From IMG/VR virus record IMGVR_UViG_3300035517_000383, positions 64,001-128,000 of that record: a stretch of DNA of 64,000 nucleotides. The stretch is one strand, 5' to 3'. The first letter of the stretch is position 1. Each line of letters begins with the position of its first letter. This stretch comes from a virus. Taxonomy: Duplodnaviria > Caudoviricetes. The translations under genes were made by a program, and so were the position numbers. The notes below the pieces were generated by a model that searched no databases, was not told the DNA's origin, and saw only the letters and a list, made by a program, of their open reading frames with translations. Below, one piece after another: positions 5,950 through 56,928 of the stretch.

Positions 5950-7806
5950 ATGAGTTATAATGCAAATGATTTAAAAACTCTCTCTGCTGGCGCGGCCTAT
6001 AGAGAAAAATTGGGTATGTATCTTTCAGCAGATTTACAAGAGGCTATTGATTTAGGACTACGAGAGCTTCTTTATAATGCTCAAGATGAATATGAAGCTA
6101 CTCATAAAGATGGAAGTCAAGTATCTATTACAATAGATACTAAAACTAATAAAATTATTGTAGAAGATAATTTAAGAGGTATTCCGTGTTCAATCAGAGA
6201 TGATGGAATTAATTCCCTTACTGCTGCCTGTTTACTACCTCATTCTGGTGCAAAGCATAAGGGTGAAAATGCTTATAAACAGGCGGTAGGTGTCAACGGG
6301 CAAGGAATGAAAATTGTCTGTCATACTTCTAGCTTTTTTGAAATTGAAGTAAAAAGAGATGGAAATATTTACTACCAATCTTTTCATGAAACAGACGAAG
6401 GTGCTGTCCCCAATGATGATGTAAAAATTATAGGAAGCACTTCTTTAACTGGAACAAAAATTACTTATATTCCATCTCCCACTGTATACGGAAAAGATAC
6501 TAAAATTGATATTGACCAACTTAAAAAGAATTTAACGGACTTATCTTATTTTACAAAAGGATTCAAAATCATTTTAGTTGTAGATGGAATTAAAACTGAA
6601 TTTTATTCAGAAAATGGACTTTTGGACGGTCTAGATTCTACACTAAGATACCATAAGAATGCTTTATATTTTCAAAAGGATTACAATGATTGTAGTGTGG
6701 AAATAGCAATTCAATGGAATAAAAAGCATGGGGAAATTAAACCTTATGCAAATAATTTGTATGTAAGAGATGGTGGCGCATTTATTGTAGGTTTTAAAAG
6801 GTCATTAACAACCACGTTTAATAGACTAGCTAATAAAAATTTTTCAGGAGACTTAATTAGAAAAACATTAGAAGGATATGTTAGTGTAAAAGTTTCTGAT
6901 GTTCAATTTTCAAATCAGGCTAAAACTGCTTTAGCTAATAAAGAAGCTCAAACTGCAACTTCTGCAGCAACTAAAGAAGCTTTAGAAACTTTTGCAAATA
7001 TTTTTAGAGATGATTTTTTTGCAATTGTCGAGGTACTATCAAAAGAAGAAAAAGCTGATAAGGCCGCGGAGAAAGCAAGAGAAAATGCACTAAAACGAGA
7101 TAATGAAATTAATAAAGAACTAAAGAAAAAAACAATTTTAGCGGGGAAACTTGCTGATTGTAGATACCATGATGAGAAATCTCAATTGATTATAGTAGAA
7201 GGCTTGTCAGCATTAGGCAGTATAATAAAATCAAGAAATAGTGATTATACAGCCGCTTTTCCATTGACAGGTAAAATTCTCAATGTACTAAAAAGTACAG
7301 AAGATGAACAAATTTCAAACGAAGTATTAAAAAATCTCCATACTGCTATTGGAGCTGGTTTTGGTTGTAATTTTAATATGAAAAAGATGAGATATGGAAG
7401 AATCGTTTTTGTGTGTGATGCAGATGAAGATGGATATTCTATTATGTGTTTGCTTTTGGCTTTTATGTATAAATATTATCCAGAATTGTTAAGACAGAAA
7501 AAGGTCTATTGGGGACAGACACCATTGTTTAAGGTTACAACAAAACAAGATAAAGTTTATTATGCATATACAGAAAAAGAACTCGAATCATTACCAGATG
7601 GTGATATTTTAAGAGCAAAAGGAATTGGAGAACTTGAACCAGAAGATTTTAAAAATACTCTTTTTTCAAAAGAAGGTAGATATATTCCTTTTAGTTTTGA
7701 AGATGCAGAAAAAGCAAATTATTATTTTGATGTATTACTTGGAGAGAATATTAAAGAACGTAAGGAATACATTAGTAAAAATGCAGATTTTGACGCTTTT
7801 GATTAA
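5950..7806 (+). CDS. gyrB: Type IIA topoisomerase B subunit (GyrB/ParE)
   Basis: GHKL motifs ELLYNAQDE, DNLRGIP, HSGAK, GVNGQG; TOPRIM IVEGLSA, PLTGKILNV, DADEDG, KGIGE. Confidence 0.93.
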   Translation: MSYNANDLKTLSAGAAYREKLGMYLSADLQEAIDLGLRELLYNAQDEYEATHKDGSQVSITIDTKTNKIIVEDNLRGIPCSIRDDGINSLTAACLLPHSGAKHKGENAYKQAVGVNGQGMKIVCHTSSFFEIEVKRDGNIYYQSFHETDEGAVPNDDVKIIGSTSLTGTKITYIPSPTVYGKDTKIDIDQLKKNLTDLSYFTKGFKIILVVDGIKTEFYSENGLLDGLDSTLRYHKNALYFQKDYNDCSVEIAIQWNKKHGEIKPYANNLYVRDGGAFIVGFKRSLTTTFNRLANKNFSGDLIRKTLEGYVSVKVSDVQFSNQAKTALANKEAQTATSAATKEALETFANIFRDDFFAIVEVLSKEEKADKAAEKARENALKRDNEINKELKKKTILAGKLADCRYHDEKSQLIIVEGLSALGSIIKSRNSDYTAAFPLTGKILNVLKSTEDEQISNEVLKNLHTAIGAGFGCNFNMKKMRYGRIVFVCDADEDGYSIMCLLLAFMYKYYPELLRQKKVYWGQTPLFKVTTKQDKVYYAYTEKELESLPDGDILRAKGIGELEPEDFKNTLFSKEGRYIPFSFEDAEKANYYFDVLLGENIKERKEYISKNADFDAFD

Positions 7807-7865: not shown

Positions 7866-10492
7866 ATGAGAGAAATTGTTACTGATGGAGAATTAGAAGT
7901 ATCTGATGCACTTCCAAATTTTTACGTTCCTTATGCATCATATGTAATTCAAACAAGAGCATTACCTGATGCGAGGGATGGCTTAAAAACAGGGGCGCGC
8001 TTTATTTTGTATGCTCAATACAAAAATAAAAATACTTTTAAAAACAAGAGAAGAAAAGCCACAGCTACAAAATCGGCAGCAATGATGTTCAGCCCACATG
8101 GTAAATAATATTGCCTGTTATACCTTTTCTCAGTAATGAGGGTGTAAAAGCTAACGGGGAAAGCTAAGGGTTTCTATGCTAATCCCGTGGGAATTAATTT
8201 ACTTCTTTTAAAGAAATAAATTAAAACCTGTACAGACTATCCTTGGAACGAAGGAGTAAGAGAACTATTTTCTCTGAAATGGGTATTTCTATTTTATAGA
8301 TAAGATATAGTCGATACCTACAGAAATGTGGGAATAATATGGATGCGAGTATTTATGGAAACGCAGTAAGAATGAGTCAAGATTTTTCCTTACGCTACCC
8401 TTTAATTGATACTCACGGTAATAATGGTAGCTTAATGCATAATAACGACTTTGCGGCCGATAGGTATTTGGAAATGCGAAGTGGTGAGATTGCAGATGAA
8501 ATGACTAATTTACTGCAAAAAGAAACTATTGATAAATGGAAACTTAATTATACAGAGGAAGAAGAATATCCAACTTATTTTCCAACAACATTCCCAAATA
8601 GTTTAGTAAATGGAAATTTTGGAATCGGAGTAAGTTTAGCTTCTTCTATCCCCTCTCATAATTTGAGTGAAGTTTCAGATGCTTTAATAAGACTATTAAA
8701 TAATCCTGAAATTGATTTTGATGAAATTTATTGTCCAATTGATTTTCCGACTGGAGGAACTATAATTAATTCCGAGGAAGTTAAAGAAAGTCATAAAATG
8801 GGAACTGGTAAGGCCGCCATTATTAGAGCGGATATCATATATGATGAAAATACCAATGAGTTAACAGCGATAAATTTACCATATATGGTATTTTCTTCTA
8901 ATGCGACAGTATCAATACAAAATGCAATAGACGAAGGAAAAATTTATGGTATTGAAAGCGTATTTGATGGAACAGATATGGATGGAGTAAAAATAGTCAT
9001 AAAATTATCAAAGAATGCTAATGTAAATAAGGTTGTTAAACTACTATATAAACATACTTTACTACAAAGTAGCTATGGAATAAATATGAATATGTTGGCA
9101 GATGGAAAATATCCGAAATGTTTTACTTGGAAAGAGATGATGGAAACATATTTGGAACATCTTTGTAATATACTTAAAAAATCATATGAATTTGATTTGA
9201 AGAAACTGAAACAAAGACTTCATATTGTAGATGGATTAATTATTGCTATTCAGAATATTGAAGAAGTAATTAAAATTATTAAATCATCTTCTTCGCCCTC
9301 TCTCGCAAAAACAAGATTACAAGAAAATTTTAATTTATCTGAGGAGCAAGGTCAAGCAATACTAAATTTAAAACTTTCAAGACTTGCTAATTTGGAATTA
9401 CAAAAATTAATTGATGAAAAAAATGAATTAAATAAGAATATTGAAAATATTAATCTTATTCTTACAGACGAAAACAAATTTAAAGAAATTGTTACAAGCG
9501 AAATTTTAAGAATTAAAAATAAATATGGAGATAAAAGAAAGACTAAATGTATAAATCTTGATTTTACTTCTGAAGATGAAGATGCAGAACCAATTGAGAA
9601 AAAAGAACTCTTAATTTACTATACAAATCTTGGCAACATTTATACACAGGAATCTACAACTCTTGTAAAAACTCGCCGCGGTGGCAAGGGTACAAAGATT
9701 AAACTTGCAAAAAATGAAGCTGTAATTAAGACTTTAAATGATGATAATTTTAGTTCTTTACTTGTATTTTCAAATCTTGGTAAGATGTACCATCTTTCAA
9801 TTGATGAATTACCTATAAATGGCAAGATTAATATTGCACAGCTTTTTGAGTTTGAAACAGGTGAAAAGCCTACAACTATAACCTCTCTCGCTCGAAAGAA
9901 CGAAATTAATTATTTTGTTTTTGTCACAAAGAACGGAATGATTAAAAAGACAGCAGCTTCTGAATATACAATTAAGCGTGGTAAATCCTTAAAAGCAATT
10001 AACCTTAAAGACGATGACCAAGTAGTTAATGTACTTTTTATGAATAATGAAAAAGTTAGTATCTTGACTAATAATGGAAATTGTGTTATAATAGAGACAG
10101 AAGAAATTAATCCGATTGGAAGAGCAACGGCAGGTGTAAAAGCAATAAAATTATCTCCAGATGATTATGTAATTGATGCTCAGACAGTATCCAACTCGGA
10201 TAAATATCTCATTACTATATCTGAACATGGTCTTATTAAAAAAGCAAGTTTGGATGAATTTCCTACTTGCGGCAGAGCAACAAAAGGCAAGAAGATTTCT
10301 GATACTCGTGAAAATGACCAGATAATTAAACATTTGACTTTAGCACAAGATTGTGATATAATAATTATAGTAAATCAAAAGAACATAAAAATTTCCACTT
10401 CGGAACTTAGAGTTCTTTCAAGAACCGCAACGGGCGTTAAAGCAGTAGACATTGCTGATACAGATGTTGTAGTTGATTTAATTGTAAGTTAG
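7866..10492 (+). CDS. gyrA: DNA gyrase A subunit, spliced: join(7866..8102,8342..10492)
   Basis: RALPDARDGLK; splicing restores SPHG|DASIY; active-site AADRY; beta-pinwheel CTD with GyrA-box TRRGGKG. Confidence 0.92.
8103..8341 (+). ncRNA. Group I intron (239 nt, ORF-less) in gyrA
   Basis: Exon ends in U (catggt) and pairs with gcc in P1; intron ends in G; P7 gacta/tagtc; removal restores PHGD. Confidence 0.9.
10334..10362 (+). promoter_or_regulatory. Intragenic sigmaA-type promoter in gyrA 3' end
   Basis: ttgact-17-(tg a)tataat, matching the intergenic promoters. Confidence 0.55.
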
Positions 10493-10507
10493 GAATAAGT
10501 CATTTAT

Positions 10508-13754: not shown

Positions 13755-15250
13755 ATGACTTATATTATTGATACGTGTGTACTTTTAGATTATCCTCAAA
13801 TTGTAGAAGATAAGAATAATCAATTAATTATTGCCACCAGTGTATTAAAGGAACTTGATGGATTAAAAAAACATAACAACCCAGAAACTGCTGCGGCCGC
13901 ACGACGTGCCGCTGTTTATATTTCTAGGAATTTAGACAATTTAGACTGGTATTCAGATTGTGAGAATTGGAATATTCCAGTTGATGACCAACTACTTAGA
14001 ATTACTAAAGAACTTTCAGGAATTTTATTAACTAACGATGTCTATTTAAAAGTTAAAGCTCTAATTGATGGAATTAATACTAAGGGATATGGTAATAAAG
14101 ATGATTATATTGGTGTAGAGTATTGGTATTTAAATTTTGATAGTAATTATTATAATGCTCGTTTAGCTCATGTTTTTGAGACTGGTAAAAAGCCTGAAGA
14201 AATTAAACTCTATGAAAATCAATATTTAATTGTAAAAAATCTTGACTCAATCGTAATGACAAGACATCAAGAAGAAGATTATGAGATTATGGCCTGCTTT
14301 GTTTATCGTAATGGCAGACTTATGCAAATTGATAATCTTAAAATTAAAAATAAGTGGATTAATTGTATTGTTCCAAAAAATGCTGAACAAATGTGTTTGT
14401 TTGAAGCTCTTAATAACAAAGATATTAATATACTCTATGCAGGAGGCAAATTTGGAACGGGTTATTGATTAGCTCCCTTATATAGTGATATATATTGAAT
14501 AACGTGGTTAATTACTGGAAAACCTAAGTCTTTTAGATATGGCAATCAGCAGCCAAGTCACTTAGTTAGTGAAAAGGTTCAACGACTATCTCGGAAGAGA
14601 GTAGAATTTTATTAATTCTAAATTACCACGCTTCTATTATTAGAAGAAGATATAGTCTACTCCGACCATTAAATTGGTGTTAAAGTATCTCGAAAGAGAC
14701 GGTATATAGGAAGTCCTTTATTTTAAATAATTTTGCATTGCAAGAGTTGGAAAAAGAAAGAATAAAGAAAATTGTTTATATTCCTAATAATTCTTATGTT
14801 GAAAATTCTATGGAACTAGGATTCCTTCCGGGTTCTGATTTTGAGAAGTTAACCCCCTCTATTGGTCCGTTAATTGACCTTATCGGAATTGATGCGGTTC
14901 AAGATATGATTTCTAGAGAACAGCTCGAAATTGTTCCTACTGGATTTATCAGAGGACGTAGTTTTGAAGATTCTATAGTAATTGTAAATGAAGCTCAAAA
15001 CCTTACAGAAGACCATATAAAACTTTTAATTGCACGTTGCGGCGAAGGCACAAGAATTCTATTTGACGGAGATTATAAACAAGCTGATTCTTTTATTTTT
15101 AGAAATAGAAATGGATTAAAGTTACTTCTAAATTTAAGAAAATCTCCTTTTTATGCAAAAATGTTTTCTACTGTTAAATTGGTTATTACAGAAAGAAGTT
15201 CTACCGCTCAGGCGGCTGAATACCTTGACCAATTAGCATCGGAAATATAA
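13755..15250 (+). CDS. phoH: PIN-PhoH family ATPase; spliced: join(13755..14462,14711..15250)
   Basis: PIN IIDTCVLL..ELDGLK..TND; Walker A GKFGTG|KS restored; GFLPG, FIRGRSF, NEAQN, GDYKQAD. Confidence 0.9.
14463..14710 (+). ncRNA. Group I intron (248 nt, ORF-less) in Walker A of phoH
   Basis: Exon ends gggU; aatcagcag; P7 gacta/tagtc; terminal G before aag (Lys). Confidence 0.9.
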
Positions 15251-27283: not shown

Positions 27284-28016
27284 TCAACAAGACATAATAT
27301 CAATTTATAATGAAGATGGAACACTAAAAACTAAAGAAGAGTTTCTTAATCTTGTTGGACAAACCTATGATGTAATGCTAGAGGAAGAAAGTAAAAATAT
27401 AGATATTTTTGAAGAACTTACTAATTCTGAAAATCATATAGATGTAGAACAAACTCTTGAAACTTTTGATTTTATTGAACGTTCAATTTTTATTCAGGCA
27501 GAAATTACTCCAGACCATGCAAATCAAGTTTTTGAATTAATTAAATTTTGGAATAAAATTGATTCAGTCAATCAAACCCCAGTTGAAGAAAGAATTCCAA
27601 TAAAAATTTATATTAATACACCAGGTGGCGACCTTAATGCAGTATTTAGTATAATTAGTTCTATTAAAATTTCTCAAACACCAGTTCATACAATTACAAT
27701 TGGTACTGGATATAGCGGTGGATTCTTTATTGGAATTTGCGGTCATAAAAGATTTGCTTATCCTTATAGTTCGTTCCTTTTTCATGAAGGATGCTCAGCA
27801 AACGAAGGTGACGCACATAAGTTTATTCAGAATGCAGAGTTCTATAAAACTCAATTATCTATTTTAAAAAAGATTACAATTGATAATACAAAGATTAAAG
27901 AAACAAAATATGACAAACATCGCAAAGATGACTGGTATTTTGATGCTGAGGAAGCTTTAAAATATGGAGTCATTGATGAAATTATTACAAATTTTGATAA
28001 ACAAGGAGAGATATAA
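27267..28016 (+). CDS. clpP: ClpP-like serine protease
   Basis: IYINTPGG, GYSGG (Ser), LFHEG (His), DWYFDAEEALKYGVIDEI. Confidence 0.85.
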   Translation: MEEKINQQDIISIYNEDGTLKTKEEFLNLVGQTYDVMLEEESKNIDIFEELTNSENHIDVEQTLETFDFIERSIFIQAEITPDHANQVFELIKFWNKIDSVNQTPVEERIPIKIYINTPGGDLNAVFSIISSIKISQTPVHTITIGTGYSGGFFIGICGHKRFAYPYSSFLFHEGCSANEGDAHKFIQNAEFYKTQLSILKKITIDNTKIKETKYDKHRKDDWYFDAEEALKYGVIDEIITNFDKQGEI

Positions 28017-43263: not shown

Positions 43264-46200
43264 TTATTTAGTTAGTATAACCGAAGTTCCAGTAGGTTTT
43301 GAAACATCTACTATATCTTGTTTAACTCTTTCAATCATTTGGTCTACATCATAATCATCTGAAATATTTTCTACATTAATGTGAATTTCAATAGAGGTAT
43401 CTCCAATATTTGAAGATACAGCATTAGATGCATTTGAGGTAGAATTGAGAATTGGAAGATTTGCAAGGAGTTGTGCGGCTTGACCTATACGTTCGGTATC
43501 TTGTGCGGAAAGGAAAGCTTCAGGTTTTTGGGGTGTGCCGTCTACCCAAGCTGGACCTGTATAGTCTACAAGACCGCCTGTTTTATATGAACTATAAGAT
43601 GTCCTTCTATTCAAATAACCGAGAAGACTTGACCATTTGTGGTGACCAACTTGAGATTCTATTGTACCTTCATCGTTAGAGATATAATTATTTTCTCTAG
43701 CCCAATCCACATTTTTTTTAACTTCTTCCTCTGTATCTCCATATATACACAATTTACTATTAGGGTCACACCATCTAAATGACATAGTAGACTCTCCATT
43801 TATCATATTATTCCATTTGGTCTCTTTTTCTAAAGTCTGTTTTACATCATTATCAAGAGGAAAAGGTCCCATTTGAACTGAGGGAGAATCTACAACTGTA
43901 TTTGTATCTTTATTTTTTGCAGAATCTACATAGTCTCCATTTGAAAGTGTGAAACCCTCTGAATGAGCTTGTCTATCAATCTCATCCCTTTCCATATCTG
44001 ATTTAGCAGTATTGTATGCCCAAGTAAACTCCTCTGCTCTACTAAGATTAGACGACAAACTCTCCTTAGTCATACTGTCGTCACTATCTAACCCATAATC
44101 CTTACTTGAACTGGTACTTGTGCTATCTGTTTCAAGAAGTTCATCATATGCTTCTTGTGCTTTAGTGATAGCATCTACTATATCTTTTGTAGATTGTTCT
44201 AAAGATGAAGTTCCGCTATTTGTTGCAGTTTCCGAAACTCTTTCTTGAACAGAATCAATCTCATTTTGTGAAGCCTCTATTTGACTAGTTAAATCAGTAT
44301 TTAAAACTTCATCTGCTAACTATTTAGCAGTAAACAAATCTGTCCAAGAATTTATTTGTTCTTCTAGTTTCGCATCTGACCAAGATTCTGTTTCGGTACT
44401 ATTTTCCATCATCCAAGCAATCATATCGTCTGAACTTTTCCAGTTTGAAATTATAGAGACGGCTTCTGCTGTTAAAGATTCTTCATTTAAAGACAATTCC
44501 ATTAGTTCAAGCTATTGTTCATTTTGTTCTTTCTATTCTTCATATTTTTCTTTCATAGTTTCAAGAATATCATCTACTGTATCATCTAATAATTGTTGTC
44601 TATCATCTTCAATTTCATCTTGTAAACTTAAAATATTGGCTTGGTTTGCTCCAGAAGTGTCTCTTTGTAAGAGAGATAATTTCTTTTCTTTTTGTGCTAA
44701 ATCATCCCACTGGTTTTGTCTATCTCTTAAATCTCTTTCCTTTTGAATTGCATCTTCTAAGGCATCTAAATATTCATCATTTGCGTCTGCTAATGCGTCA
44801 TATTTATCTTTTGCATTATCTATCTCTTCTTGGTATTTTTCCTTTAAAGTAGAAATAACTTCGTCTTCAATTGCAACAGTATTTTTTAAAGCGTCTTCTT
44901 GTAATTTTTTAATTTCATCGGCTCTTTTCTTTTCCTATTCTAAGTTTTCAGTTTGTACATCTTCATATTTCTATAATTGTTGAATTTGTTCTTCAATCCA
45001 TTTCTTAAAATCATCAGAGAACTGTGCTGAATTTATAGCTTCATAATTAGCCATCCATGTTTTAGAAATATCATCATAATACACATAGTCAGACGTATCT
45101 GAGCTAAGTTGATAATTAGGATTCATTGCATTAATTTCATCTATTTTAGATTGTAATCCTGAAGTTAATGCTTCCTAAATATTTTGAATACCCTATTTAG
45201 CAACATTATTTTCTGCTTGTCTATATGCAGATTCTTGTCGTGCGGCAGTGGTATAATCAGAAAGAGCTTCTGCTATATTCGTATCGGCATCTAGGTTATC
45301 AAGAACATCTTTTGCGTTAGATGCGGCATCTGATAAATTGTTGATTGCAGTTGTATAGTTATATAAGTAATCTAAACTATTTTTATATGTATCTGTACCA
45401 TATAATGCTTCATTTAAAGCTTCTAATTTCTCTGTTAATTCTTCTACTTCATCAGATGTATCAGAGATACTATCTCGTGTATCTGTAAATTTATTGTCTA
45501 TTTCTTTAAGTGCCGCAAGTCTTTCTGGTTCAGATAATGCTTCCCATAAAGCATCATCATCGTTTATTAAAGAATCGAGATAATCTACTTGTTCAGATAA
45601 TTTATCTATATAATCTGATACATCATTACCATTTAAGGAACTTAGAAAATCTTCTACTGTTGTTGTACTTGTTATCTCGGAAGTATCTTTACCCATTAGT
45701 GTAGCTAAATCTTTCCAAACTGAAAGACGGGCATTATCAATGAGTAATAGGTCTTTTTGCAGGTCTGTTTCATTCTACAATCCTATAAGTGCGTCAAGCT
45801 GAGCTTGAATTTTATCCCTTTCTACAGTAAGTTGTTCTTTTGCAGTTGTAATTAAATAATCTTCACTAGTAATCTATTCTTCAATTCCAGTTTGTAAATC
45901 ATCTGTTCTTAATGTTATGCCATCCTCAGTTATATCTACATAATCTTCAATAGACATATTAACTTCTTCTAATGTTTCCGCTAAATCTCTATATGTTGAA
46001 TATTTTATATTTCCATTTTCTAGCTGCTCTTCTACTGCGTCCTAAACATCTTCTGCTGTCTATACTGCGGTATCGTATATAGTTTCCATTGATTCTTTAA
46101 AACTTTTAACTGCCGTTTCATTATTAAAATTAAATTCAATAGCTAAATCTTGTTTACCTTCGTTAACAACTTTTTCAAAATAATCAGACCAAAATTCTTC

Positions 46201-49200
46201 ATCATAAGTATCTCCAACACTTTCCTCCACAATAGAAAGGAATTGGTCTTTAAGAGAAGTCATTGTGGATAAATCTAGGTCTTGCCAAGCTATATTATTA
46301 AAAATATTGGAAATTGCATTAGCGTCTAACCCTTGTGTTTCTAAGTTCTTAGCAAGTAAACTGTAAAATTCAGTTGCAGATTTTTCAGACACTCCAGAAT
46401 CAATAGCATTACCAACTGCTGTCGTATAAGAGCTTAATTGTTTTGTATTCCATTTTTGAGACTATGATGTAAGAAGTCCATAATTCTTAGCGTCTTCTTG
46501 TGCCGATTTGAGAGATTCCTCAAAACTACCTAATATATCAGCAATAGCATCTTCCTCTACACCAAGTGTTCCTAAAATGTTATTAAGTTTTTCAAGATTG
46601 GCCTCAGAAGTATCTTCGGCTAATGTTTCATAAGCTTTATTAGCTTCACGATTTTCTCCAATTTTTTCAGCTTTTTCTGTTGCGTCTGTGTCTTGAAAAT
46701 CAGATAAATAGATAAGAACATTTGATAATATTTCCGCCTCCGCCGCATCTGTATTATCATCGCCATATTTCTCTTTTATTTCGTCTATTGCTGCTTTTAC
46801 TGAACTATCGCCTCCATATAGTTCCTCAAGGGCGCTGTTAAGAATATTTTCGGTTAATTGAATAAATTCTCCTTGCTCATTATAGTACCCCAAACCCTCA
46901 ACTGGACCTTTTATAGTAAAGCCTGCTGTACCATATTCATTGGCATATAATTGAATTTTATTTTCATTTTTGGTGTCACTTTCTACTATATCAAATACTT
47001 CATCGGCATAATTTTTTTCTTGACTTTCAATTTCTCTTGCCTAAACAGCCGCATAAACCAAAGATTCAAGACTAGAAGAATTAGCATTTATTAATTCATA
47101 TTCTTCCTTTAAATTATTAATTCTAGCTTGATGCTATTCGTTTAATGCATCTATATACTCTTGATTATATCCTTCTATCTTAGAATAAGTTGTCTCTAAG
47201 TCAGTATATGATGATAATAATTTTAACAAATCTTCCGCGTCTGTTTGATAGAAAAAATCATTTAGAGAAGAATAACCCATATTAGCCACCTAATCTGAAA
47301 GGAGCTTACGTACCCCCTAAAAATTCCCAGAATTTACAAAATCTTTGTATACTACATTTTCATCTTCTGGACCACTTAATGTGTATTCTCCCCTTAATTT
47401 ATCATAAAAGAAATCTAAATCTAAGTTTCTCTAATAATTACTTGATTCCGTATCATTTAGAATGTCAGATAAGGTGTTTTTTATTATTTCTATATCTTCT
47501 AGATTTTCTTCAATCTATTCATTGTCGAAAAAATCTTCTGCTATGAAAGTGCCTTGTTCAGATAACTTTGATTCTATTTTTGTAGCTGAAAGTCCAATTA
47601 AAGAAGAGATATTTTTAATCTAATCATTTTTCGCATCTGCTTCATTTAACTGAATAGAAGTTTCACCTTGTACTGCGGCGGCCTTTGCAGATATATCAGC
47701 TGATTCTTTCTATTGCTCTAAAATCCTATCCCATAATGAAGTCTGTACCTATAACTCTCCAGTAACTTCGTTATAATAAGTTACAACTTCTGGATATTGT
47801 TCTTGAATTTCTTCAACTAAAGAATTATAAGTTTCTTGTTCTTCGGTTGTTAATGTTTGTTTTTTATTTAATTCTTCAAAATTCTTTTTGAGCTTTTTCC
47901 CAGAAGTTACAAGATTTTCAGCTTCTTGTGCCGCAGAATCTAAATTATCAGCTAATTCTTTTGCAGCTTCTGCTGATTCTTTTAATGCAGCGGCCTAATT
48001 TTCCCAAATCTCTTCGTCTGATAAAGAATCCTTAGCGGATGCCCATGCATAAATTAGAACGCCTGCTATAGCAGCTCCCACAAGAGCTATTGCAACAGGA
48101 CCACTTAGAACAGTAACAAGACCTGTTATCATTTTCTCTGCTGCAAAAGATATTATAGATGGTAATGCTGATAAAAGCATGGATTTCCAAATTGTACTAA
48201 AATCAGAACCAGAAATTGCCATCATTAATCCAGTTGTTATTGCTCCAGAAACAGCATTTGATATAGTTGAAGTTAATGGATTAGTTATTTGCTGTGCTCT
48301 GTCAGCTGTATCACGAAGTTTATCTGAATTCTAACCAGTTCTTATTGCTCTCTCAGCCTCTGCCGCACCAGCCTCCTTTATTTTATTAGCTAATTTCTAA
48401 TATTCAGTAATTTGGTCTGCAACTTCTTGCGTAATTTCACCATTTTCTACTTTTGTTTGAAGAGCGTTTTGTAATATATCTCCCCCTAAAAGGTATTCTC
48501 TTTCTAATCCATTAATTGCTTCCTAAATTTCACTAGGCATCTGAGCATATGTAATCAACATATTTGTTGTTTTTGTCTTTAAATTATCAGTAGTTACTCC
48601 AGCATCTTGTAAAGCTGTTTTAAATTTATTAATTGACGTTTCATCATATGTGGGGGTTATATTAAAATTGAGTTTAAATTTTTTTGTAACTTTATTAAGA
48701 GTATTTTGTATTCTTAACTGTAATTTATTTACTTCTGTCTATATCTATCTAGTTCCTTGTTGAATTCCTTTTATAAAGTTAGTAATAACACTCTTTCCAA
48801 GTGTCATACCTATTAATCCAATAGATATAAGTTGCTTAGCATCTAATGAACTAATTTTTTCAACAAGCTTTGTAATTCCATCTATAGCGTTCTTAAAAGT
48901 ATCACTCTTTAAAAAACTTTGTCTTAATTCTTCCCATGCTACTTTTAATTTATTAAGTTTATTTTCAATTGTATCTTGATATTTTGCAAATTGTTCTTCT
49001 GATTTTCCTGCGGAATTCTATGCAGTTTCTACTAGTTCCATGGTTCTGTCATAGTCTTCCATTAACTTTATTTTTTAAAGCTATTCGTTAAATAACTTCC
49101 CATTTGGCTTATAGTTTCCTATAAGAAAAGGTCATATCTTATCTTTTCAGAAATTCTCCACTTCGGGACACTTATCCCTACAAATGACCGTCGAACCTTC

Positions 49201-52200
49201 ACCCTAACGGTGCTTGGATGCTGATTGTCCAATCCTAATAATTTTCAAACTTTCACACTTAAGATTTCTCTTTATGTTGTAGTTTATTAGGCTCTAAGGA
49301 GTTTCCAGCAATTCAAATATTATAGCCTTAATTTAAGCTATGAATCTACTTTGCTGCAAGTAGATTATTTAATATGTTTTTTCCAATAATAATTATGGGT
49401 TTTGTTTCCATTTCTTATTGCCCGTCTTATAAGTGCAGGCTAGCATTTCATTTCTTTTGCCGCCGCAGCAATAGATGGAAAAATTTTAATGATATTTCCC
49501 TCAATATCAATTTGTTCTACAGGTATCATATTTCTGTGACCATTATTCATTGCGTTATTCATATTTTCTGAATGAGAAATGTCTCTTAAATTTGTATAAT
49601 GATTATTCAATTTATTACCATCTATATGGTCTATTTCATTAAAAATTATATTATTAACAAAAGCTTTGTAGACTAAAATATGAGCAGGAATTGTTTTCAA
49701 TTCATTATTAATATAAATCGAATAACGTAAGTACCCATCTTTTTTAGGTCTTAGCTTTATTCTTGTATTGGAATTATAAATTTCTCCATTTTCAGAAATA
49801 TAATACTAAGTATTTTCAATCTATCTCCATTGTTTACTGTTTAGTTCTTTCTCTGTAATATATTGTTTAGTAGTATTACTTGTTTTGCGGCCAGCAATAT
49901 ACGCTTCTTTTAAGTTTGTAGAAAAATCAACCCATTCTAAATTATTTTTATGATTATTAAGACGATTACCGTCTTTATGATGAACACATGAAAAATTATT
50001 ATCATTACTTAAAAAATATTCTGCAACTAATCTATGAGCTAGTTTATTATAATACTTCCCTTTAATCGTTAACTAATAAGTTCTATAACCTGTTGAATTA
50101 ACACTCCCTTTTAAATAATGATTTGTTTTTTTGTTAAATAAACGTCCATCATCAAAAATTAGATAGTTTGTTTCCTAATCATTAATTATTATTGTTTTAT
50201 ACATATTATCACCTTCTTATATTTTTCAATAAAGCTCGACTATATAATTTACTATTAGTAATTCTCTTTTAAGTCTGTGAACCTTCACCTTAGCGGTGCT
50301 TGGATGCTGATTATCTATTTTATAGTAACCTATAAATCCAATCATTTTTTAGAACCATCACACTTAAGATTTCTCTTTATGTTGTGGTATAATTGGCTTT
50401 AAGACGTTCCAGCATTTGAAAGAATTGTGTTTTTTTAGGCCGTACACTTCGCCAGCATTTTAACGAGAACCGGCCGCCGTAGTTGCTATCAGTTTTTCCT
50501 ATTATCTTTCAATAATAGCTAGACTATATCATAAGTTAATATTTAATTAACTTCCCACTACTTCGATTTTCTAAAATCTACTCTACTTATAATTTCGATA
50601 GTCGTTGAACGGTTTATTTACTATAGTAAATAAGTTCGCTGCGGATTGTCCAAAATAACACGATATTACCATACCTTAGTCATTACCTTCGCCGCAACTC
50701 TTAGAATTGTTTGGTTGTGTTATTTTTAAGGAGATTCCCGCAATTCAATGGGTTACGTTACCTAGCTTTATTATTTTTTATTTAAGAATTCATCATATTC
50801 TGCTTTTGAAATTTCCCTCCAATAATAACCGTGACTAATGCCGCCAGTTTTCATTGCACGAGAGAGATTCGAGCAATTGTTTAATCCAAGACTTCTTGCA
50901 GCTTCTGAGGTACTAGGAAAAACTTGAATTAAATTCATCTCTAAATCATATTGTCCAGTCAGTTTTGTTTGTTTTGTTTTTGTTTGATAATAACTTTTTA
51001 TAACATTCTCTCTTTGAGAAACATTCTCTAAATTACTTAATCTATTATTGCCTCTGTTAGAATCAATATGATTAATAACATTGATTTTTTCATCTGGGTG
51101 GAAAACCATATAAACAGCTCTATGAGCTTGAATTTCTTGTCGATTTCCATCTAAATCGTTATATGTCCACCTAATATAACCACTATTTTTATTCCTACTA
51201 CCAAAAGTTATCTTTCCAGTCTGTAAATTTTTAATTCTACCCATATTGGATACTTCATATTTACTATTTTGTAAAGGTTTCCATTCTTCCTCTTCTAATT
51301 CTTCTGATGTTAATTTCTCAGTTATTTTATGTTCAACTGGATTAATAATTTTATTAAGATTTTCTTCTTGGCTTACCCATTCTAAATTATCTAAGGCATT
51401 ATTTCTTGGACACCCATCTTTATGATGAACAATAGGTTTGTTTTCAGGGTTTGGAATAAATAATCGCGCCATTAATTGATGTTTATAAATGCCTATCGTT
51501 TCTCCGTCAATTTCAAGAGTAAATCTTATATACCCTTGGTTTATTGCACCTTGTGCAATTCTATGCGTATTTTCATTATATAAATCTCCATTCTTAAATA
51601 AAAAATACTGTGTTTCCTTTCCATTAATTATGACTGGTTTTCCTTCAACCATTTTTATATCACTCCTAGCTATAATATTTAGTAAAGATTTTCCTTTACT
51701 AATAATATTATATCACAAAATATTATTAAAGTCAATATTTTAAAAATGTTTTTCTTGTGATACAAGCATATTTTTAAAAATGGAATGGTATCCGATAACG
51801 CTATGTATTGCGGTCAAGTGTATTCCATTTAGCACTCAACTCTAAAAATACATCATCTAAGTCTCTAAATTGTCCTGTGGTATCTTTTAATGAAATACCT
51901 ACAGATTTTAACGCAGTATCTACGTCATTATAATCTAAGTCGTCAAATTCTGAATCAGAGGCCGAGACATTTTCCTTTAATTCTGTGAATCTGGCGATTA
52001 TTGTTTTCATTCGTTTTATGTTCCTTTATAAAGTCGCAATTTTTATAAAGACCCAATAGGGTTTTCTTTATGTTACCATAAAGACCAGACTATATCTTCA
52101 TCTTATTTTTAAAATAAGAGTCTCCCATTTCGAGGTCATTCACTTACCTCTATCGGCATTTCAGCCGTTAGTCTTTGAACCTTTAATTAGGGAATTAGTA

Positions 52201-55200
52201 TAATTTAGTTTCTTATTATATAAATACCAATTATACCTTCCTTTTATTACTTGGCTGCTGATTATCTTGTTGTAGTATAATTATACGATACCATAAGACT
52301 TCCCAGCAATTAAGGAGATTTCAAATATATTTCACAATATATTAGGGTTAATGATTAGCCGTACCAATGTTTTCCTTTTTATTCAGATGGTTCGTTATTC
52401 CATCCCGTTTATTAAACTGCTATAGGCTTTCCCTATAGAATAGACTATATCTTCTTCCTTTTCTCTAAAAGGAAGTATAATACTTCGGTATCACTTGATA
52501 CCTATCAGAGCCAATCCTGATAGTCGTTGGACGTTTTACTTAGAATTCTAAGCAACTTCGCTGCGAGTTATCCAATCTCTTACTTTTTTACTTTACCAAG
52601 CTGATTAGACTTGCCGCCGCCCTATCACTAAGGCGGTTTAGTAGTAAAAGCTCTAAGGATTTTCTCGTCAATTCATTATATTCTACTATAATAATTGCTT
52701 ATTATAGACCCCGACTTAAAAATAAGTTATTGAATATTTTTTCTTCATAGTCGTCTTTTGTTTCCTTCTAATTGATTGTCTTAAAATTCGTGCGTCTATT
52801 TCTGGATATAATTTTGTTAAGTTATTTATTTCATCATAATTAAAATATAATTTAATATTTTCATTTGATAACATATATTGAGTTTGTCTTTCTTTCTCGA
52901 ATTTGTCATCTTTATCTGTGTTAATAATAGGATTTTCGATTATTTTTTCAGCAACAGGACTTTTTCCTTCTCTTTCTGTTGGAAAAAAATGATTATCTGA
53001 TATTAAATCCCACTGCACTTCGATTTCCTTTCCACTTTCAATAAGATAACCGTTAAAAGAGTACTTTTCTATTTTATTAGTAGCCTCTTTATAATGACCA
53101 TTTAATTCTGCTTTAACTTCATCTATTTTTATATATTTAGTTTTATATGAAGTTTTGTTTTTATAGTTTAAAATCCAATTTAAGGCATCTGTCGAGATAG
53201 GATATTCTTCATACCAGAAAATACAATCCTTGTGTGTTACTCTTTGACCAGAAAGAACATTAAAGATACATCCTCTTGAAAAATTATTATCCTTGCAGAA
53301 TTGTGTTAAATTATTAAAAACTTTTGTTATATTTTTCTTTAAATCATAGCAAACAATATTTTTTAAATTTACACCTCTTAAATTATTCTCATTATAGTAA
53401 TTTGATTGGTCACTGTTTGATGTCGCCAAATTTTTATTATAAAAATGAGGATTTGGAATTTTATAATATTCCAAATAGTATTTTTCAAGCCATGATAATT
53501 CATTCCCATCCTTAGCGGCGGCCAAATAATGAACAGAAAAATTTTCTCTACCAAATTTTTTGAAAGCTTTTTGCAATTCTACTCCACTACCCTTATAACC
53601 ATGCCAATAGAATAGCTAATTAGAATTTACTTTTCCAATATACATCATTCCATTAATTTCATTTCTTACATAATAAATATAACCATAATCCATTTTATTT
53701 TTGCCTCCTGTAGTTTTAATCTGCGGTTTATCCGCTCACAGGATAAGTAAAAATAGAAAAATCCACATCTAATACTTTGAAACCAAAAACGAATCAAATT
53801 CTTATTTTTATAGACAAGGGGCCTCCTACGTTGTCTCAATCATTTGTGTTAAGAACGCAGAAGTTGTTTCAAAGCTCATACCTGCCGAGTTAGCAATCGC
53901 TTATAAAAATGTCTATTTTAGACATTTAGACTATATCTTTTTCAAATATCACTTCGGAATATTTATCCCTACTCTCTGTCGAGATAGTCGTTGAGCTTTA
54001 GTTTAAGATAATTATTTAAATTCTTTATTTCCCAATAAGGAACTTCAATTAAAGGTATATTGTTAGCTAGACAATATTCTCTTTTTATAGTATCTCTTCT
54101 TTTCTAATCTTCTATTGTGCCTAAATAAGCATCATTTACCGTATAATAATGTTGTTGTCCTTGAACTTCAATTAAAATTTCTTTTTTATCTTTTGTAAAA
54201 ACACAAAAATCAAAACTAAAAGATTTTAAATCTTCATATCTTTTTTGAAAAACAAAATCATATCCATTGTTAATTAAAAAATTTCTTACTTTCTATTCTA
54301 ATAGTGACATTTTAGAATAGCATTTTGGACAACCTCTTCCAAGTTCAGAAATCCTTTTAGAAAAAACAAAACCACAATTATGTTTTATTAAAGATTTATT
54401 ATTTGTTCCAGTAAACTATAGTAATTCATATTCATTATTTCCAACTTGATTTAAAAATTCTTGACCCTGTTTAAAATCGAATTTATTATAGACTTTAAAA
54501 CAATTGGGACATATTTTACCATCAAAATTTCCTCGAACTTTTTTTTCAAAAATATGGCCGCATCTTTTACATTTAAATTTAGAATAGTCATTAGTACCTT
54601 TCCATTCTAACAATTCAAGATAACCTTTTTTCAGTTCTTTTTGTATATGATTATAGATTTTGTTTTTATCTTTTTCACAGTTACTACAAAAAAATTCCTT
54701 CCGTCCTATTATTACAGCTTCAATATTATTAATTATTTCAATCTTGCCGCACTTATTGCATTTAATTTTACAGGACTTTCTCAATCCTTGATAGTTTAAT
54801 AAAACAAAATCTGAATTTGGAAATAACAATTCTAATCGTTCTTGTAATCTCTCCTTATTCCATCTTGAATATGGTTTATAGCATTTAGAACATAATGTTA
54901 TTTTAGTTAATAAATTTCTTGCATTTTTATAATTATAAATTTCACCACATTCTATACATTTATATTTGATAGAAGATTTTTCACCATTAAATTCTAAAAT
55001 TTCTATTTTATTTTTATTAAATACTCTTTTTAATGTTTCTACAAAATCATACATATTTTTTCTCCTTTTATCTTAAACTCTTAGCTGCTGATTATTCATT
55101 ATTTAGTACTTAGGTTAGCAATTCCATATACCATACTATTACTTTTTTCTACTTTCGTAACCATTATGGTGTAATAGTCATTAGAATGTTCCAGCAATTC

Positions 55201-56928
55201 AATATTTTAAACGCCGATTGACGCTGTTTTACTCATAGCATAAGCAATATCTTCAACACTAGCAGCGGCATTAGCAGCAAGCTCAGAGTAAACATCTGTT
55301 ACGTGAGAGCCTTCTTCCATTTCTAATTTAAACCCGCGCAAGGCCGCCGTCATTTCAGAAGTGGCTGTACTAAAATCTAGACCAGCCAAAGTAGCAAGTT
55401 TCATTGTGTCTTCTGTAAGTGATAAAGCTTCATTTGTATCAAGGCCTTGTTGGTAGAATAAAGCAGAAGCTTCAATAACGCTTTTAGTTTCCTGTCCTAA
55501 ATTTTTTGCCATATCGGCATAATCACTATAACTATCCCACATTTCTGATACAGAATAATCAGTAACCATTGCAATGGATGCAAAAGCACTATCTAATTCT
55601 TTTACGTCCTAAAATGTTTCTTGTATAGCTTGTTTTACTAGTCTCCATGCAGACCCAATTGAAAGTATTTGTTTTACAGTGTTTTGTAAATTACTAAATG
55701 CGTTGTTAACATTTTCCTAAGCTTCTGCCCATTCTAAGTTTGCCTAAACTGTGTCATGTGCGGCACCTCTAACGTTTTCCTGAGCCTCTACATTTCTGTC
55801 TAGTTGCTAATTAAAGTTCTCAACATTCTATCCAGCTAATGCCATTGCAGAGGACAAAGTACTTTCCAATTGTTGTGTAATCTATTCAACTTGTTGTAAA
55901 TTCTAAGTTAAAGACTAAACATCACTATTATTAACGAGATTTTGTCCTGCTTCACTTAGTTCAAATTCACCTTGTGCATTACTTTGGCCAAGAACCATTG
56001 AATTTCTTGCTCTAGTAATTTGTCCTTTAATACCACTTTCTGTTGCAGCATTAGTCATTGCATTTAAATCTCTAGTAAAGTCCTCTTGGAGTTCATCTGT
56101 ACTTGTAATAGCAACTCCATATTTTTTCATTTCTGCTTGTAGTCTTGCAACAGCATCAGCCGCAGTTTTGCCGCTATTTCCAATTTCTTTTAATACCTTA
56201 GAATACTCTTCTGTTAATGCAGACTAAACATTGGATGCTTCTACCGTCCTATTAGCAGTTACTCCAGTACCACTTCTTAAGTCTGTTCCTCCGTGAGTAC
56301 CCCTTCTGTCAGTTGCGGCATAAGTATATTTATTAGCATCAACAGTTACATTCTCTGCGTATGATTGAGCATTTGCACTTTTAGCAACTTGTTTACCAAT
56401 GCTTTTTCTTGCGGCTTCTTCTTTTGCTTGACCGACCTTTTTAATTGCTGCTTCAAGCTGTTCTTGATTTTTAATTTCACCAGTAATAGATTTAATTTCT
56501 TTATCGTTTAGTTTTAAACTTTTAGCTTGTTCAGTCAAACTATCTTTAGCTGTCTTAACTAAATCTTCTTGTTTACTGTTTAGATTGTCAAGCTAGGTTC
56601 TATATTTCTGAACCTCAGCGGCATTTACATTGAAATTACCAGCTTGATTAACTTGTCTTAATCCAACCTAAATTTTAGCAATAACTGTATCAAGTTTATC
56701 AAATTGTTTACCAAAATTTTGCACGTCTTTGCTTCCAGAAAATCCTTTTTGTACATGAGCAAGAAGTTCTTGCACCATTTTATCTGCCGAAGCAATATCT
56801 TTATCTACTTGAGTAAACATACTATTCTATGCGCCAGCCTATGACATAGCCTGACGAACTTGTTTTAAGGCATTAAGTATATTACTAACATCTAAATTAC
56901 CTTTTATAGTATAATTTCTATCTGCCAA
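43264..56928 (-). CDS. Tape measure protein (~2624 aa) in 7 exons: 55221-56928, 53817-53899, 52358-52374, 51795-52011, 50463-50489, 49336-49356, 43264-49065; many TAG
   Basis: Exons total 7875 nt (divisible by 3) and rebuild the TP901-type TMP core ..AMSKTASIANSAGMSFETTSAFLTQMIETTQEAPENIGTAMKTIIARF..LDRNTQRYIATTAAGSRQQSRFIALMEDYDRT..; TTG start after AGGTGA. Confidence 0.88.
49066..49335 (-). ncRNA. Group I intron 6 of TMP (270 nt, ORF-less)
   Basis: P1 AUAGCU/GGCUAU, P7 variant GGUCA/UGACC, terminal G. Confidence 0.88.
49357..50462 (-). mobile_element. Group I intron 5 of TMP (1106 nt) with HNH ORF in 3' (P9) region
   Basis: P1 UCGU/GCGA, P10 UGCUG/CAGCA, P7 GACU/AGUC, terminal G. Confidence 0.88.
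49365..50204 (-). CDS. Intron-encoded tandem HNH endonuclease + NUMOD1 (279 aa, several TAG)
   Basis: AHRLVAEYFL..VHHKDGNRLNNH..NLEWV; AHILV..IDHIDGNKLNNH..NL; IEGNIIKIFPSIAAAA. Confidence 0.82.
50771..51652 (-). CDS. Intron-encoded tandem HNH endonuclease + NUMOD1 (293 aa, no TAG)
   Basis: VHHKDGCPRNNALDNLEWV; INHIDSNRGNNRLSNL; QYDLEMNLIQVFPSTSEAA. Confidence 0.88.
   Translation of the reverse strand: MVEGKPVIINGKETQYFLFKNGDLYNENTHRIAQGAINQGYIRFTLEIDGETIGIYKHQLMARLFIPNPENKPIVHHKDGCPRNNALDNLEWVSQEENLNKIINPVEHKITEKLTSEELEEEEWKPLQNSKYEVSNMGRIKNLQTGKITFGSRNKNSGYIRWTYNDLDGNRQEIQAHRAVYMVFHPDEKINVINHIDSNRGNNRLSNLENVSQRENVIKSYYQTKTKQTKLTGQYDLEMNLIQVFPSTSEAARSLGLNNCSNLSRAMKTGGISHGYYWREISKAEYDEFLNKK
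51707..51735 (-). promoter_or_regulatory. Early-type sigmaA promoter inside intron 4 upstream of its HNH gene
   Basis: Minus strand TTGACT-17-(TG A)TATAAT. Confidence 0.75.
52012..52357 (-). ncRNA. Group I intron 3 of TMP (346 nt, ORF-less; putative C-A 5' splice pair)
   Basis: AAUUGCUGGGAA, AAUCAGCAGCC, P7 GACUA/UAGUC; GC|A junction restores GTAMKT. Confidence 0.8.
52375..53816 (-). mobile_element. Group I intron 2 of TMP (1442 nt) with GIY-YIG ORF in P1 loop
   Basis: Exon end CCCU pairs with GGGG after the ORF stop; P7 GACUA/UAGUC; terminal G; restores QEAP|ENIG. Confidence 0.85.
52716..53693 (-). CDS. Intron-encoded GIY-YIG homing endonuclease (325 aa, 1 TAG)
   Basis: MDYGYIYYVRNEINGMMYIGK..YKGSG..AFKKFGRENF..LEKYY..FYN; RBS AGGAGG. 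Confidence 0.85.
53900..55220 (-). mobile_element. Group I intron 1 of TMP (1321 nt) with nuclease ORF in P6 loop
   Basis: P1 AGCGU/GCGUU; AAUUGCUGGAA; AGUUUAAGAUAA/UUAUCUUAAACU stem brackets the ORF; P7 GACUA/UAGUC; terminal G. Confidence 0.87.
53963..55054 (-). CDS. Intron-encoded Zn-ribbon-repeat + PD-(D/E)XK/Vsr-like endonuclease (363 aa, 4 TAG)
   Basis: Repeated CxxCG..CxxC units, then S..E..V..FL..FDF..LIEVQGQQHY..RD..KREYC..NNIPLIEVPYW. Confidence 0.8.

Follow-up and report, generated by a model that had tools for sequence, protein, structure and literature searches.

How is a phage gene to be read when both of its ends belong to one protein family and the conserved centre is missing from the track of open reading frames (ORFs)? 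The question is raised by a stretch of 64,000 nucleotides (nt), below called the window, of an uncultured phage with the IMG/VR virus record IMGVR_UViG_3300035517_000383, which is linear, without terminal repeats, ~152 kb long and estimated to be 92% complete. With TAG read as glutamine, the minus strand of the window includes a block of late genes, in which two long frames, 56928-55207 (573 amino acids, aa) and 49062-43264 (1932 aa; positions are window coordinates unless stated otherwise), flank 6.2 kb with four endonuclease-like ORFs. The first frame matches the tape-measure family phrog_4211 at positions 183-740, the second picks up the same family at positions 850-1088, and ~110 residues of the conserved core are absent from the ORF track. 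We conclude, with a probability of roughly 0.88, that the minus-strand region 56928-43264 is a single gene for the tail tape measure protein (TMP), interrupted by six mobile group I introns and specifying a 2624-aa product with TAG as glutamine. This reading is carried by the observed exon/intron anatomy, the ribozyme cores, the splice-site helices P1 and P10, their covariation and the variable occupancy of the insertion sites in relatives.

The assignment to the TP901-family tape measures has been based on the PF10145 domain, the great length of the protein and the neighbourhood, with a Dit gene located directly downstream. Pfam PF10145 (PhageMin_Tail) is recognized on exon 1 alone with 49.3 bits (cut-off 33.2), the match covering profile positions 2-106 of 201 and breaking off at the end of exon 1, and exons 1 and 7 both have matches to tape-measure PHROGs. 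With exon 1 as the query, over 100 homologues without interruption, 2400-2680 aa in length, were furthermore retrieved. These align straight over all six junctions and all carry PF10145, and JGI gives two of them the name 'TP901 family phage tail tape measure protein'. Among cultured phages, tblastn with exon 1 found distant tape measures only, at 25-34% identity.

Alignment of intronless homologues to the window delineates the coding segments, all on the minus strand. With five homologues, tblastn gave blocks at 56928-55216, 53900-53817, 52010-51795 and from 49071 onward, the internal two at 81-86% identity; homologue P0002, for example, places its residues 1-574, 573-600, 607-679 and 694 onward on what are designated exons 1, 2, 4 and 7 (47-86% identity). 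Exon 1 (56928-55221, 1708 nt) begins with a TTG start codon and is matched by the homologues from residue 1, exon 2 (53899-53817, 83 nt) is 86% and exon 4 (52011-51795, 217 nt) 81-86% identical to homologues, and exon 7 (49065-43264, 5802 nt including the stop codon) matches their C-termini. Between these blocks two gaps of 6 and 14 residues are left, at which the homologues read ENIGTA and IATIAAGSRQQSRFIA, respectively. The peptides that fill these gaps are encoded in the window as ENIGTA at 52374, IATTAAGSR at 50489 and QQSRFIA at 49356, which corresponds to exon 3 (52374-52358, 17 nt, ENIGT plus two nucleotides of an alanine codon, with a peptide identical to homologues), exon 5 (50489-50463, 27 nt, with IATTAAGSR for IATIAAGSR in the homologue) and exon 6 (49356-49336, 21 nt). 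Chance is excluded as the origin of these matches, because the micro-exons agree with the homologues at 6/6, 8/9 and 7/7 residues, in the correct order and each directly after an intron-terminal G.

The rule of a U at the end of the exon and a G at the end of the intron defines unique junctions, with the exception of a C before intron 3. The predicted ligation gives back the homologue sequence exactly, and the frame of exon 1 by itself runs into a stop four codons beyond its junction. The internal exons sum to 365 nt and the joined exons to 7875 nt, that is 2624 codons and a stop, with 43 in-frame TAG codons and no other internal stop.

Two findings support the recoding of TAG. A suppressor-type tRNA with the anticodon CUA, labelled 'Pyl' by ARAGORN, is encoded in a cluster of six tRNA genes outside the window (G000 27510-27603), while the window itself holds no tRNA gene. 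Glutamine is the commonest residue opposite the TAG codons in 20 homologues, and three TAG positions, 594, 673 and 2202, are glutamine in 20 of 20. An initial annotation made from the letters of the window had already proposed seven exons and six introns, an uninterrupted joined protein of 2624 aa and TAG as glutamine. The reanalysis arrived at coordinates and lengths identical to the base, the joined frame is open with TAG as the sole type of in-frame stop codon, intronless homologues match the reconstructed peptide over every junction, the micro-exons included, and the glutamine assignment is backed by the tRNA and by the alignment of most TAG columns with glutamine.

The six insertions have been examined with the Rfam group I model RF00028 (cut-off 50 bits) and for conserved core segments. 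Four of them reach the cut-off: intron 2 (53816-52375, 1442 nt) with 66.7 bits at 52729-52420, intron 3 (52357-52012, 346 nt) with 76.2 bits at 52367-52066, intron 4 (51794-50490, 1305 nt) with 61.7 bits at 50796-50500 and intron 5 (50462-49357, 1106 nt) with 50.3 bits at 50478-50217. Intron 6 (49335-49066, 270 nt) has a weak full-length match (20.6 bits, E 0.015). Intron 1 (55220-53900, 1321 nt) gave no match when searched by itself and a partial match of 21.2 bits at 54019-53911 in a wider search, and has been assessed by its core segments, P1 and P10. Four conserved segments, namely the 5' strand of P3/P4, the 3' strand of P4 with P6, J6/7 with the 5' strand of P7, and J8/7 with the 3' strand of P7, occur in the correct order in all six introns. 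In intron 1 they are located at 55199, 55093, 53994 and 53937, and the poor model score of this intron arises because its ORF is inserted between P6 and J6/7; in intron 6 P7 is compensated (GGUC/GACC). The positions of the ORFs differ: after P6 in intron 1, between the 5' splice site and the guide sequence and thus within the P1 loop in introns 2 and 4, and, with the core coming first, between P9 and the 3' splice site in intron 5, while introns 3 and 6 are ORF-free. A comparison among the insertions revealed 72% identity between introns 6 and 5 over 144 nt, so that intron 6 is a predicted paralogue of the intron 5 core. Among cultured phages, a blastn search with intron 3 aligned no more than 70-80 nt, in the P7-P8 core. 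Inteins have been ruled out as an identity of the insertions, which are out of frame and stop-rich; equally, group II introns have been ruled out, with neither a reverse transcriptase ORF nor a group II match.

The helices that define the splice sites are fitted to the flanking exons. All six introns end with G, and the U before the 5' splice site, within a U·G pair of P1, is present in introns 1, 2, 4, 5 and 6. The P1 helices read AGCGU/GCGUU in intron 1, CCCU/GGGG in intron 2 (guide sequence at 52712), GGCUAA/UUAACC in intron 3, CGUUAU/GUAACG in intron 4 (6 base pairs, bp; guide at 50761, ~1030 nt downstream), UCGU/GCGA in intron 5 and AUAGCU/GGCUAU in intron 6. A P10 of 4-6 bp, with its guide bases in the canonical position immediately 5' of those for P1, was identified in introns 1 (CGAUUG/CAAUCG, 6 bp), 3 (AAUGA/UCAUU), 4 (UAGC/GCUA), 5 (CAGCA/UGCUG, adjacent to P1) and 6 (UUAAU/AUUAA, 5 bp). 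The P1 that the Rfam model draws in introns 2, 4 and 6 does not involve the real 5' exon and was discarded; the guide sequences of these introns were found by hand. For intron 3, a junction one base later, with U at the exon end and A at the intron end, was equally rejected, since the terminal G is lost.

Comparison with relatives adds covariation to the presence of these helices. Compensatory changes affect 35 of the 83 predicted pairs in the core of intron 2 (9 sequences) and 11 pairs in intron 6, including P1, P7 and P9 (7 sequences, the window and six relatives). In P1 of intron 6 the guide sequence follows the exon through a synonymous change from AUA to AUC; the P1 of intron 1, compared with the relatives L014 and L002, tracks the synonymous change GCG to GCA. 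Between the window and L018/L025, P1 of intron 5 changes from UCGU/GCGA to CCGU/GCGG and P10 from CAGCA/UGCUG to UAGCA/UGCUA, the latter with an exon change from CAG to TAG, both glutamine under recoding. Such covariation is the mark of putative ribozymes under selection. The initial annotation had called six group I introns, each with P1 pairing, P7 and a terminal G. These elements were verified in every intron, and the core segments and splice-site helices speak for the group I identity of all six, with covariation in introns 1, 2, 5 and 6, while the model search agreed for introns 2-5 and left introns 1 and 6 below the cut-off.

Exon 6 is given over almost entirely to RNA pairings with its two neighbouring introns. 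A hairpin at 49343-49366 (minus strand) extends across the 3' splice site of intron 5, with the intron tail pairing to exon 6 nucleotides 7-14 and the loop presenting the terminal G and the P10 bases. Its shape is retained in L018/L025, where its two arms have other bases yet remain paired and the Ser-Arg codons in the exon arm change from AGU AGA to UCA CGG, and it may help the intron 5 core to reach a 3' splice site ~860 nt away. Nucleotides 1-5 of exon 6 are thus used for P10 of intron 5, 7-14 for the hairpin arm and 16-21 for P1 of intron 6, and the same 21 nt encode seven conserved residues. As the pairings of exon 6 covary with synonymous codon changes, RNA structure already shapes the coding sequence here.

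Homing-endonuclease ORFs reside in four of the six introns, all on the minus strand. The ORF of intron 4 (50771-51652, 293 aa) contains HNH_3 (7.7e-18), NUMOD4 and NUMOD1, all above their cut-offs, and matches phrog_59 (2.1e-55). The ORF of intron 5 (49365-50204, 279 aa) contains HNH_3 above the cut-off (2.3e-11) and NUMOD1 just short of it (22.7 bits, cut-off 22.8), and equally matches phrog_59 (1.6e-58); both products are predicted I-HmuI-type HNH homing endonucleases on account of HNH_3 and NUMOD. The ORF of intron 2 (52716-53693, 325 aa) matches phrog_314 'homing endonuclease' (7.8e-16), and its N-terminal 99 aa resemble SegE_GIY-YIG (1.2e-4, 22.8 bits, cut-off 25) and GIY-YIG (15.5 bits, cut-off 22.6), so that it probably specifies a GIY-YIG-type homing endonuclease. 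The product of the intron 1 ORF (53963-55054, 363 aa) is endonuclease-like, with matches to phrog_559 'HNH endonuclease' (9.8e-45) and phrog_7140 'intron encoded nuclease' and, in Pfam, weak matches to a zinc ribbon and DUF2726. A sequence search of the PDB with the ORFs of introns 1 and 2 gave no match. In-frame TAG codons are found in three of the four ORFs, namely those of introns 5 (five), 2 (one) and 1 (four), and not in that of intron 4; therefore, these three are translatable only when TAG is a sense codon, presumably late in infection.

Why six such elements are assembled in one gene can be addressed with relatives. The search of IMG/VR with exon 1 retrieved no related loci, whereas the search with the conserved exon 4 retrieved 80, referred to by locus number (L). 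Insertion sites were mapped by a spliced aligner combined with inspection; beyond residue ~750 the aligner produces spurious small exons. The core is uninterrupted in ~55 of the 80 relatives and interrupted in ~25, with at least 12 insertion sites in the conserved stretch, at codons 495/496, 529/530, 570/571, 590/591, 597/598, 600/601, 601/602, 602-603, 607/608, ~618, 675/676, 681/682, 684/685 and 691/692. Homologous introns at the same sites as in the window, 66-96% identical, are found in L002, L003, L014/L015, L018, L020, L023 and L025; the intron 1 site is occupied by homologous introns in L002, L014 and L023, and intron 4 is 96% identical to the same-site intron of L014.

The most heavily loaded gene is that of L014/L015 (IMGVR_UViG_3300035521_000351 and 3300035520_001075), a complete genome of 157 kb with terminal repeats. 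Nine introns are placed within 163 codons of its tape-measure core (L014 5950-13506, the same in L015), at codons 529/530, 570/571, 597/598, 601/602, 607/608, 675/676, 681/682, 684/685 and 691/692, with exons of 12, 18, 18, 9 and 21 nt among others; five of the nine introns reach the Rfam cut-off. In addition, a further intron of ~900 nt, which contains an ORF with a LAGLIDADG motif, separates ENI from GTA in L003 (2057-2973) and L002 (9552-9618). It is flanked by exons of 8-9 nt, and moving its junction by one base yields a U ahead of the splice site together with a terminal G. Over whole genomes, group I matches amount to 9 in the present record; two relatives with introns have 10 and 14, two with an intact gene have 0, and complete relatives with terminal repeats have either 10-14 matches or none. 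Recoding and intron load are not linked, as relatives with the standard code have one to three introns and one TAG-recoded relative has none. Relatives on contigs of 153-182 kb (L089-L094) have been placed in metagenome-assembled genomes under the names Ruminococcus, Oscillospiraceae, Clostridia, Bacilli and Melainabacteria. Mis-binning of phage genomes is the probable cause, and a Firmicutes host is only weakly hinted at.

The location of the insertions coincides with the conservation of the protein. Identity to 20 homologues is 85% at residues 496-692 versus 27% elsewhere, and the best window of 60 residues, 559-618 with 93%, holds introns 1-3. On the best reading of these sequences, homing elements would have gathered here because no other part of the gene has stayed alike enough in diverged lineages to offer them a target. 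Six mobile group I introns would have entered the 122 most conserved codons of the tape-measure gene of a siphovirus-like phage, and four of them still carry homing-endonuclease genes, two of the HNH plus NUMOD type, one GIY-YIG-like and one of the phrog_559 type. That these endonucleases are active and that homing is the cause of the clustering is what we infer; the same reasoning of a conserved target has been applied to the tape-measure and tail-tube introns of Bacillus prophages (PMC2504315).

Expression of the gene would then proceed from a single pre-mRNA of ~13.7 kb in which each intron may fold as its own ribozyme. The 5' splice sites would be picked by an exon/guide pairing of 3-6 bp in P1 (4-6 bp in five introns), and excision would follow the standard two-step reaction, started by free guanosine and using the terminal G of the intron. 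Ligation would yield an mRNA of 7875 nt, which the phage tRNA(CUA) would allow to be translated into the protein of 2624 aa. No order of splicing seems strictly required, because each micro-exon fits the P10 of the upstream intron and the P1 of the downstream intron. The pile-up would represent a build-up of selfish elements rather than a regulatory device.

It is unlikely in our judgement that the array is more than such a parasitic load, whether as an exclusion cassette or as a gated or variable tape measure. As an exclusion cassette, the four endonucleases and six ribozymes, placed in the one stretch common to all relatives, could jointly cut the tape-measure genes of intron-free rivals in mixed infection and drag flanking tail genes along. 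In the case of gating, the co-folding of six adjacent ribozymes could set the amount of tape measure, or give in-frame forms without the 27- or 21-nt exon. Such isoforms, already envisaged in the initial annotation, would be possible arithmetically and have precedents in Twort orf142 and in the Bastillevirinae, but they would lose highly conserved residues.

Several features weigh against the reading of the locus as a functional gene with six introns and in part also favour an improbable alternative, namely that at least one insertion, most likely intron 3, 1 or 6, no longer self-splices, leaving the gene dead or dependent on a helper such as a maturase or host factor. Introns 1 and 6 score below the Rfam cut-off, intron 2 is without a convincing P10, and P1 is short in introns 2 and 5 (4 bp) and in intron 3, which pairs three exon bases only. 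Intron 3 is in addition preceded by a C (junction 52357-52358), which places C opposite A in P1 and is unusual for natural group I introns. A C·A wobble can, however, substitute for U·G at the cleavage site, as reported for the Tetrahymena ribozyme. The record is a metagenome assembly of the incomplete extent given above, and splicing itself is deduced from sequence. Crowding six ribozymes into one transcript may also lead to wrong folding or to skipped exons, as observed in Twort and SIOphi (PMC10136302, PMC11878797). On the other hand, the compensatory changes found among relatives in P1 and P7 of introns 1 and 6 imply selection on a working ribozyme, the C-containing junction of intron 3 is retained in L002 and L003, and micro-exons and long exons are intact and conserved with TAG as the only in-frame stop.

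Very doubtful is the proposal that the insertions are free-standing endonuclease cassettes and that the tape measure is made as separate polypeptides, or has lost its core, without any splicing. Free-standing homing-endonuclease genes are common in phages and gene finders do show separate ORFs at this locus; however, two of the six insertions are ORF-free, a group I core is present in all six together with a P1 and, in five, a P10 that match the adjoining exons, the exon 1 frame ends shortly after its junction, and micro-exons of 17-27 nt without start codon or ribosome-binding site are sensible only if spliced. That the linear IMG/VR contig without terminal repeats is a chimeric assembly artefact is scarcely credible, since independent assemblies from other samples (L002, L003, L014 and the complete L015) show the same introns at the same sites.

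Group I introns are also present elsewhere in the genome, at least 11 in total with the six of the tape-measure gene included. One, without ORF, at 14453-14680 (plus strand, 74 bits) interrupts a PhoH-like gene, whose halves at 13755-14468 and 14738-15250 match phrog_2765 positions 3-263 and 275-441. A match at 8093-8333 (plus strand), scored with 58.8 bits when the whole genome was searched, is situated between the genes for the two topoisomerase II subunits at 5950-7806 and 8243-10498 and overlaps the start of the second. Three more matches are found outside the window (loci L081 and L086; G000 130036-130367, 144477-144795 and 144932-145033), one of them between two phrog_2729 'virion structural protein' ORFs and two adjoining a GIY-YIG-like ORF and an ORF for a phrog_559-type endonuclease.

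The locus has consequences in several fields. Gene finders break the gene into unrelated ORFs and miss the exons of 17-27 nt, and therefore the largest structural gene is mis-annotated across a clade of 150-180-kb gut and rumen phages. For RNA biology, this locus together with its relatives provides a graded natural series: insertions at 12 or more sites, anything from no intron to nine in a gene, and exons as short as 8-9 nt. With this series one could ask how many ribozymes can fold next to each other in one transcript, which shortest exon can hold a P10 plus a P1, and how frequent skipping is. In evolutionary terms, the same series shows that homing elements accumulate where diverged genomes still share sequence.

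Outside the phages, a counterpart is fungal mitochondrial cox1, in which mobile group I introns with endonuclease ORFs are densely packed in the most conserved part of the gene and separated by micro-exons. That gene belongs to an organelle genome and its splicing is often helped by maturases, whereas the present one is a late phage gene with a recoded stop codon. A close phage counterpart is provided by prophages of the Bacillus cereus group, where group I introns in tape-measure genes were described at three sites as TMP-IVS1, IVS2 and IVS3a/b (Tourasse & Kolsto, 2008; PMC2504315). Host gene, IA type of phage intron, location in conserved sequence and variable occupancy are alike, and there too related introns have adapted to neighbouring sites via changes in P1; the introns of those prophages are, however, at most two per gene and spread out, and neither micro-exons nor recoding have been reported (PMC2504315). 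In the locus described here, all six introns interrupt a coding stretch of only 365 nt, and 12 or more sites are in use among relatives.

In the tail tube gene orf142 of phage Twort, three group I introns, an exon of 23 nt and exon skipping have been described (Landthaler & Shub, 1999, as cited in PMC10136302 and PMC11878797). Several introns in one tail gene and a micro-exon between two similar IA introns, comparable with introns 5 and 6 around exon 6, are common features, but Twort has three introns rather than six, and its splicing and skipping are experimental, while here splicing is predicted from sequence and skipping would be possible. Genes of Bastillevirinae contain up to three introns, with 47% exon skipping in one case (PMC10136302, PMC11878797), and cluster J mycobacteriophages have spliced introns in capsid and tail genes (PMC3706429). 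Among uncultured gut phages, zeta crAss-like phages have as many as 14 introns in a genome, with a capsid gene broken into five pieces (PMC7886860), and Jug phages have ~18 group I introns per genome, with splicing backed by metatranscriptomes (PMC12880540). Many group I introns with homing endonucleases in essential genes are shared with the present phage, and in crAss-like phages introns coincide with TAG or TGA recoding of late genes; these are other phage groups, however, with genes in two to five fragments, and arrays with exons below 30 nt are not described in the passages considered. No report was found in the literature of at least six introns in one phage gene or of phage exons shorter than 20 nt. 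Nevertheless, the density that the initial annotation regarded as exceptional for a tail gene was overstated, with group I introns known in tape-measure genes since 2008 (PMC2504315) and up to nine carried by relatives. The array is an extreme, very dense case of a known phenomenon, and its mechanism is the familiar one.

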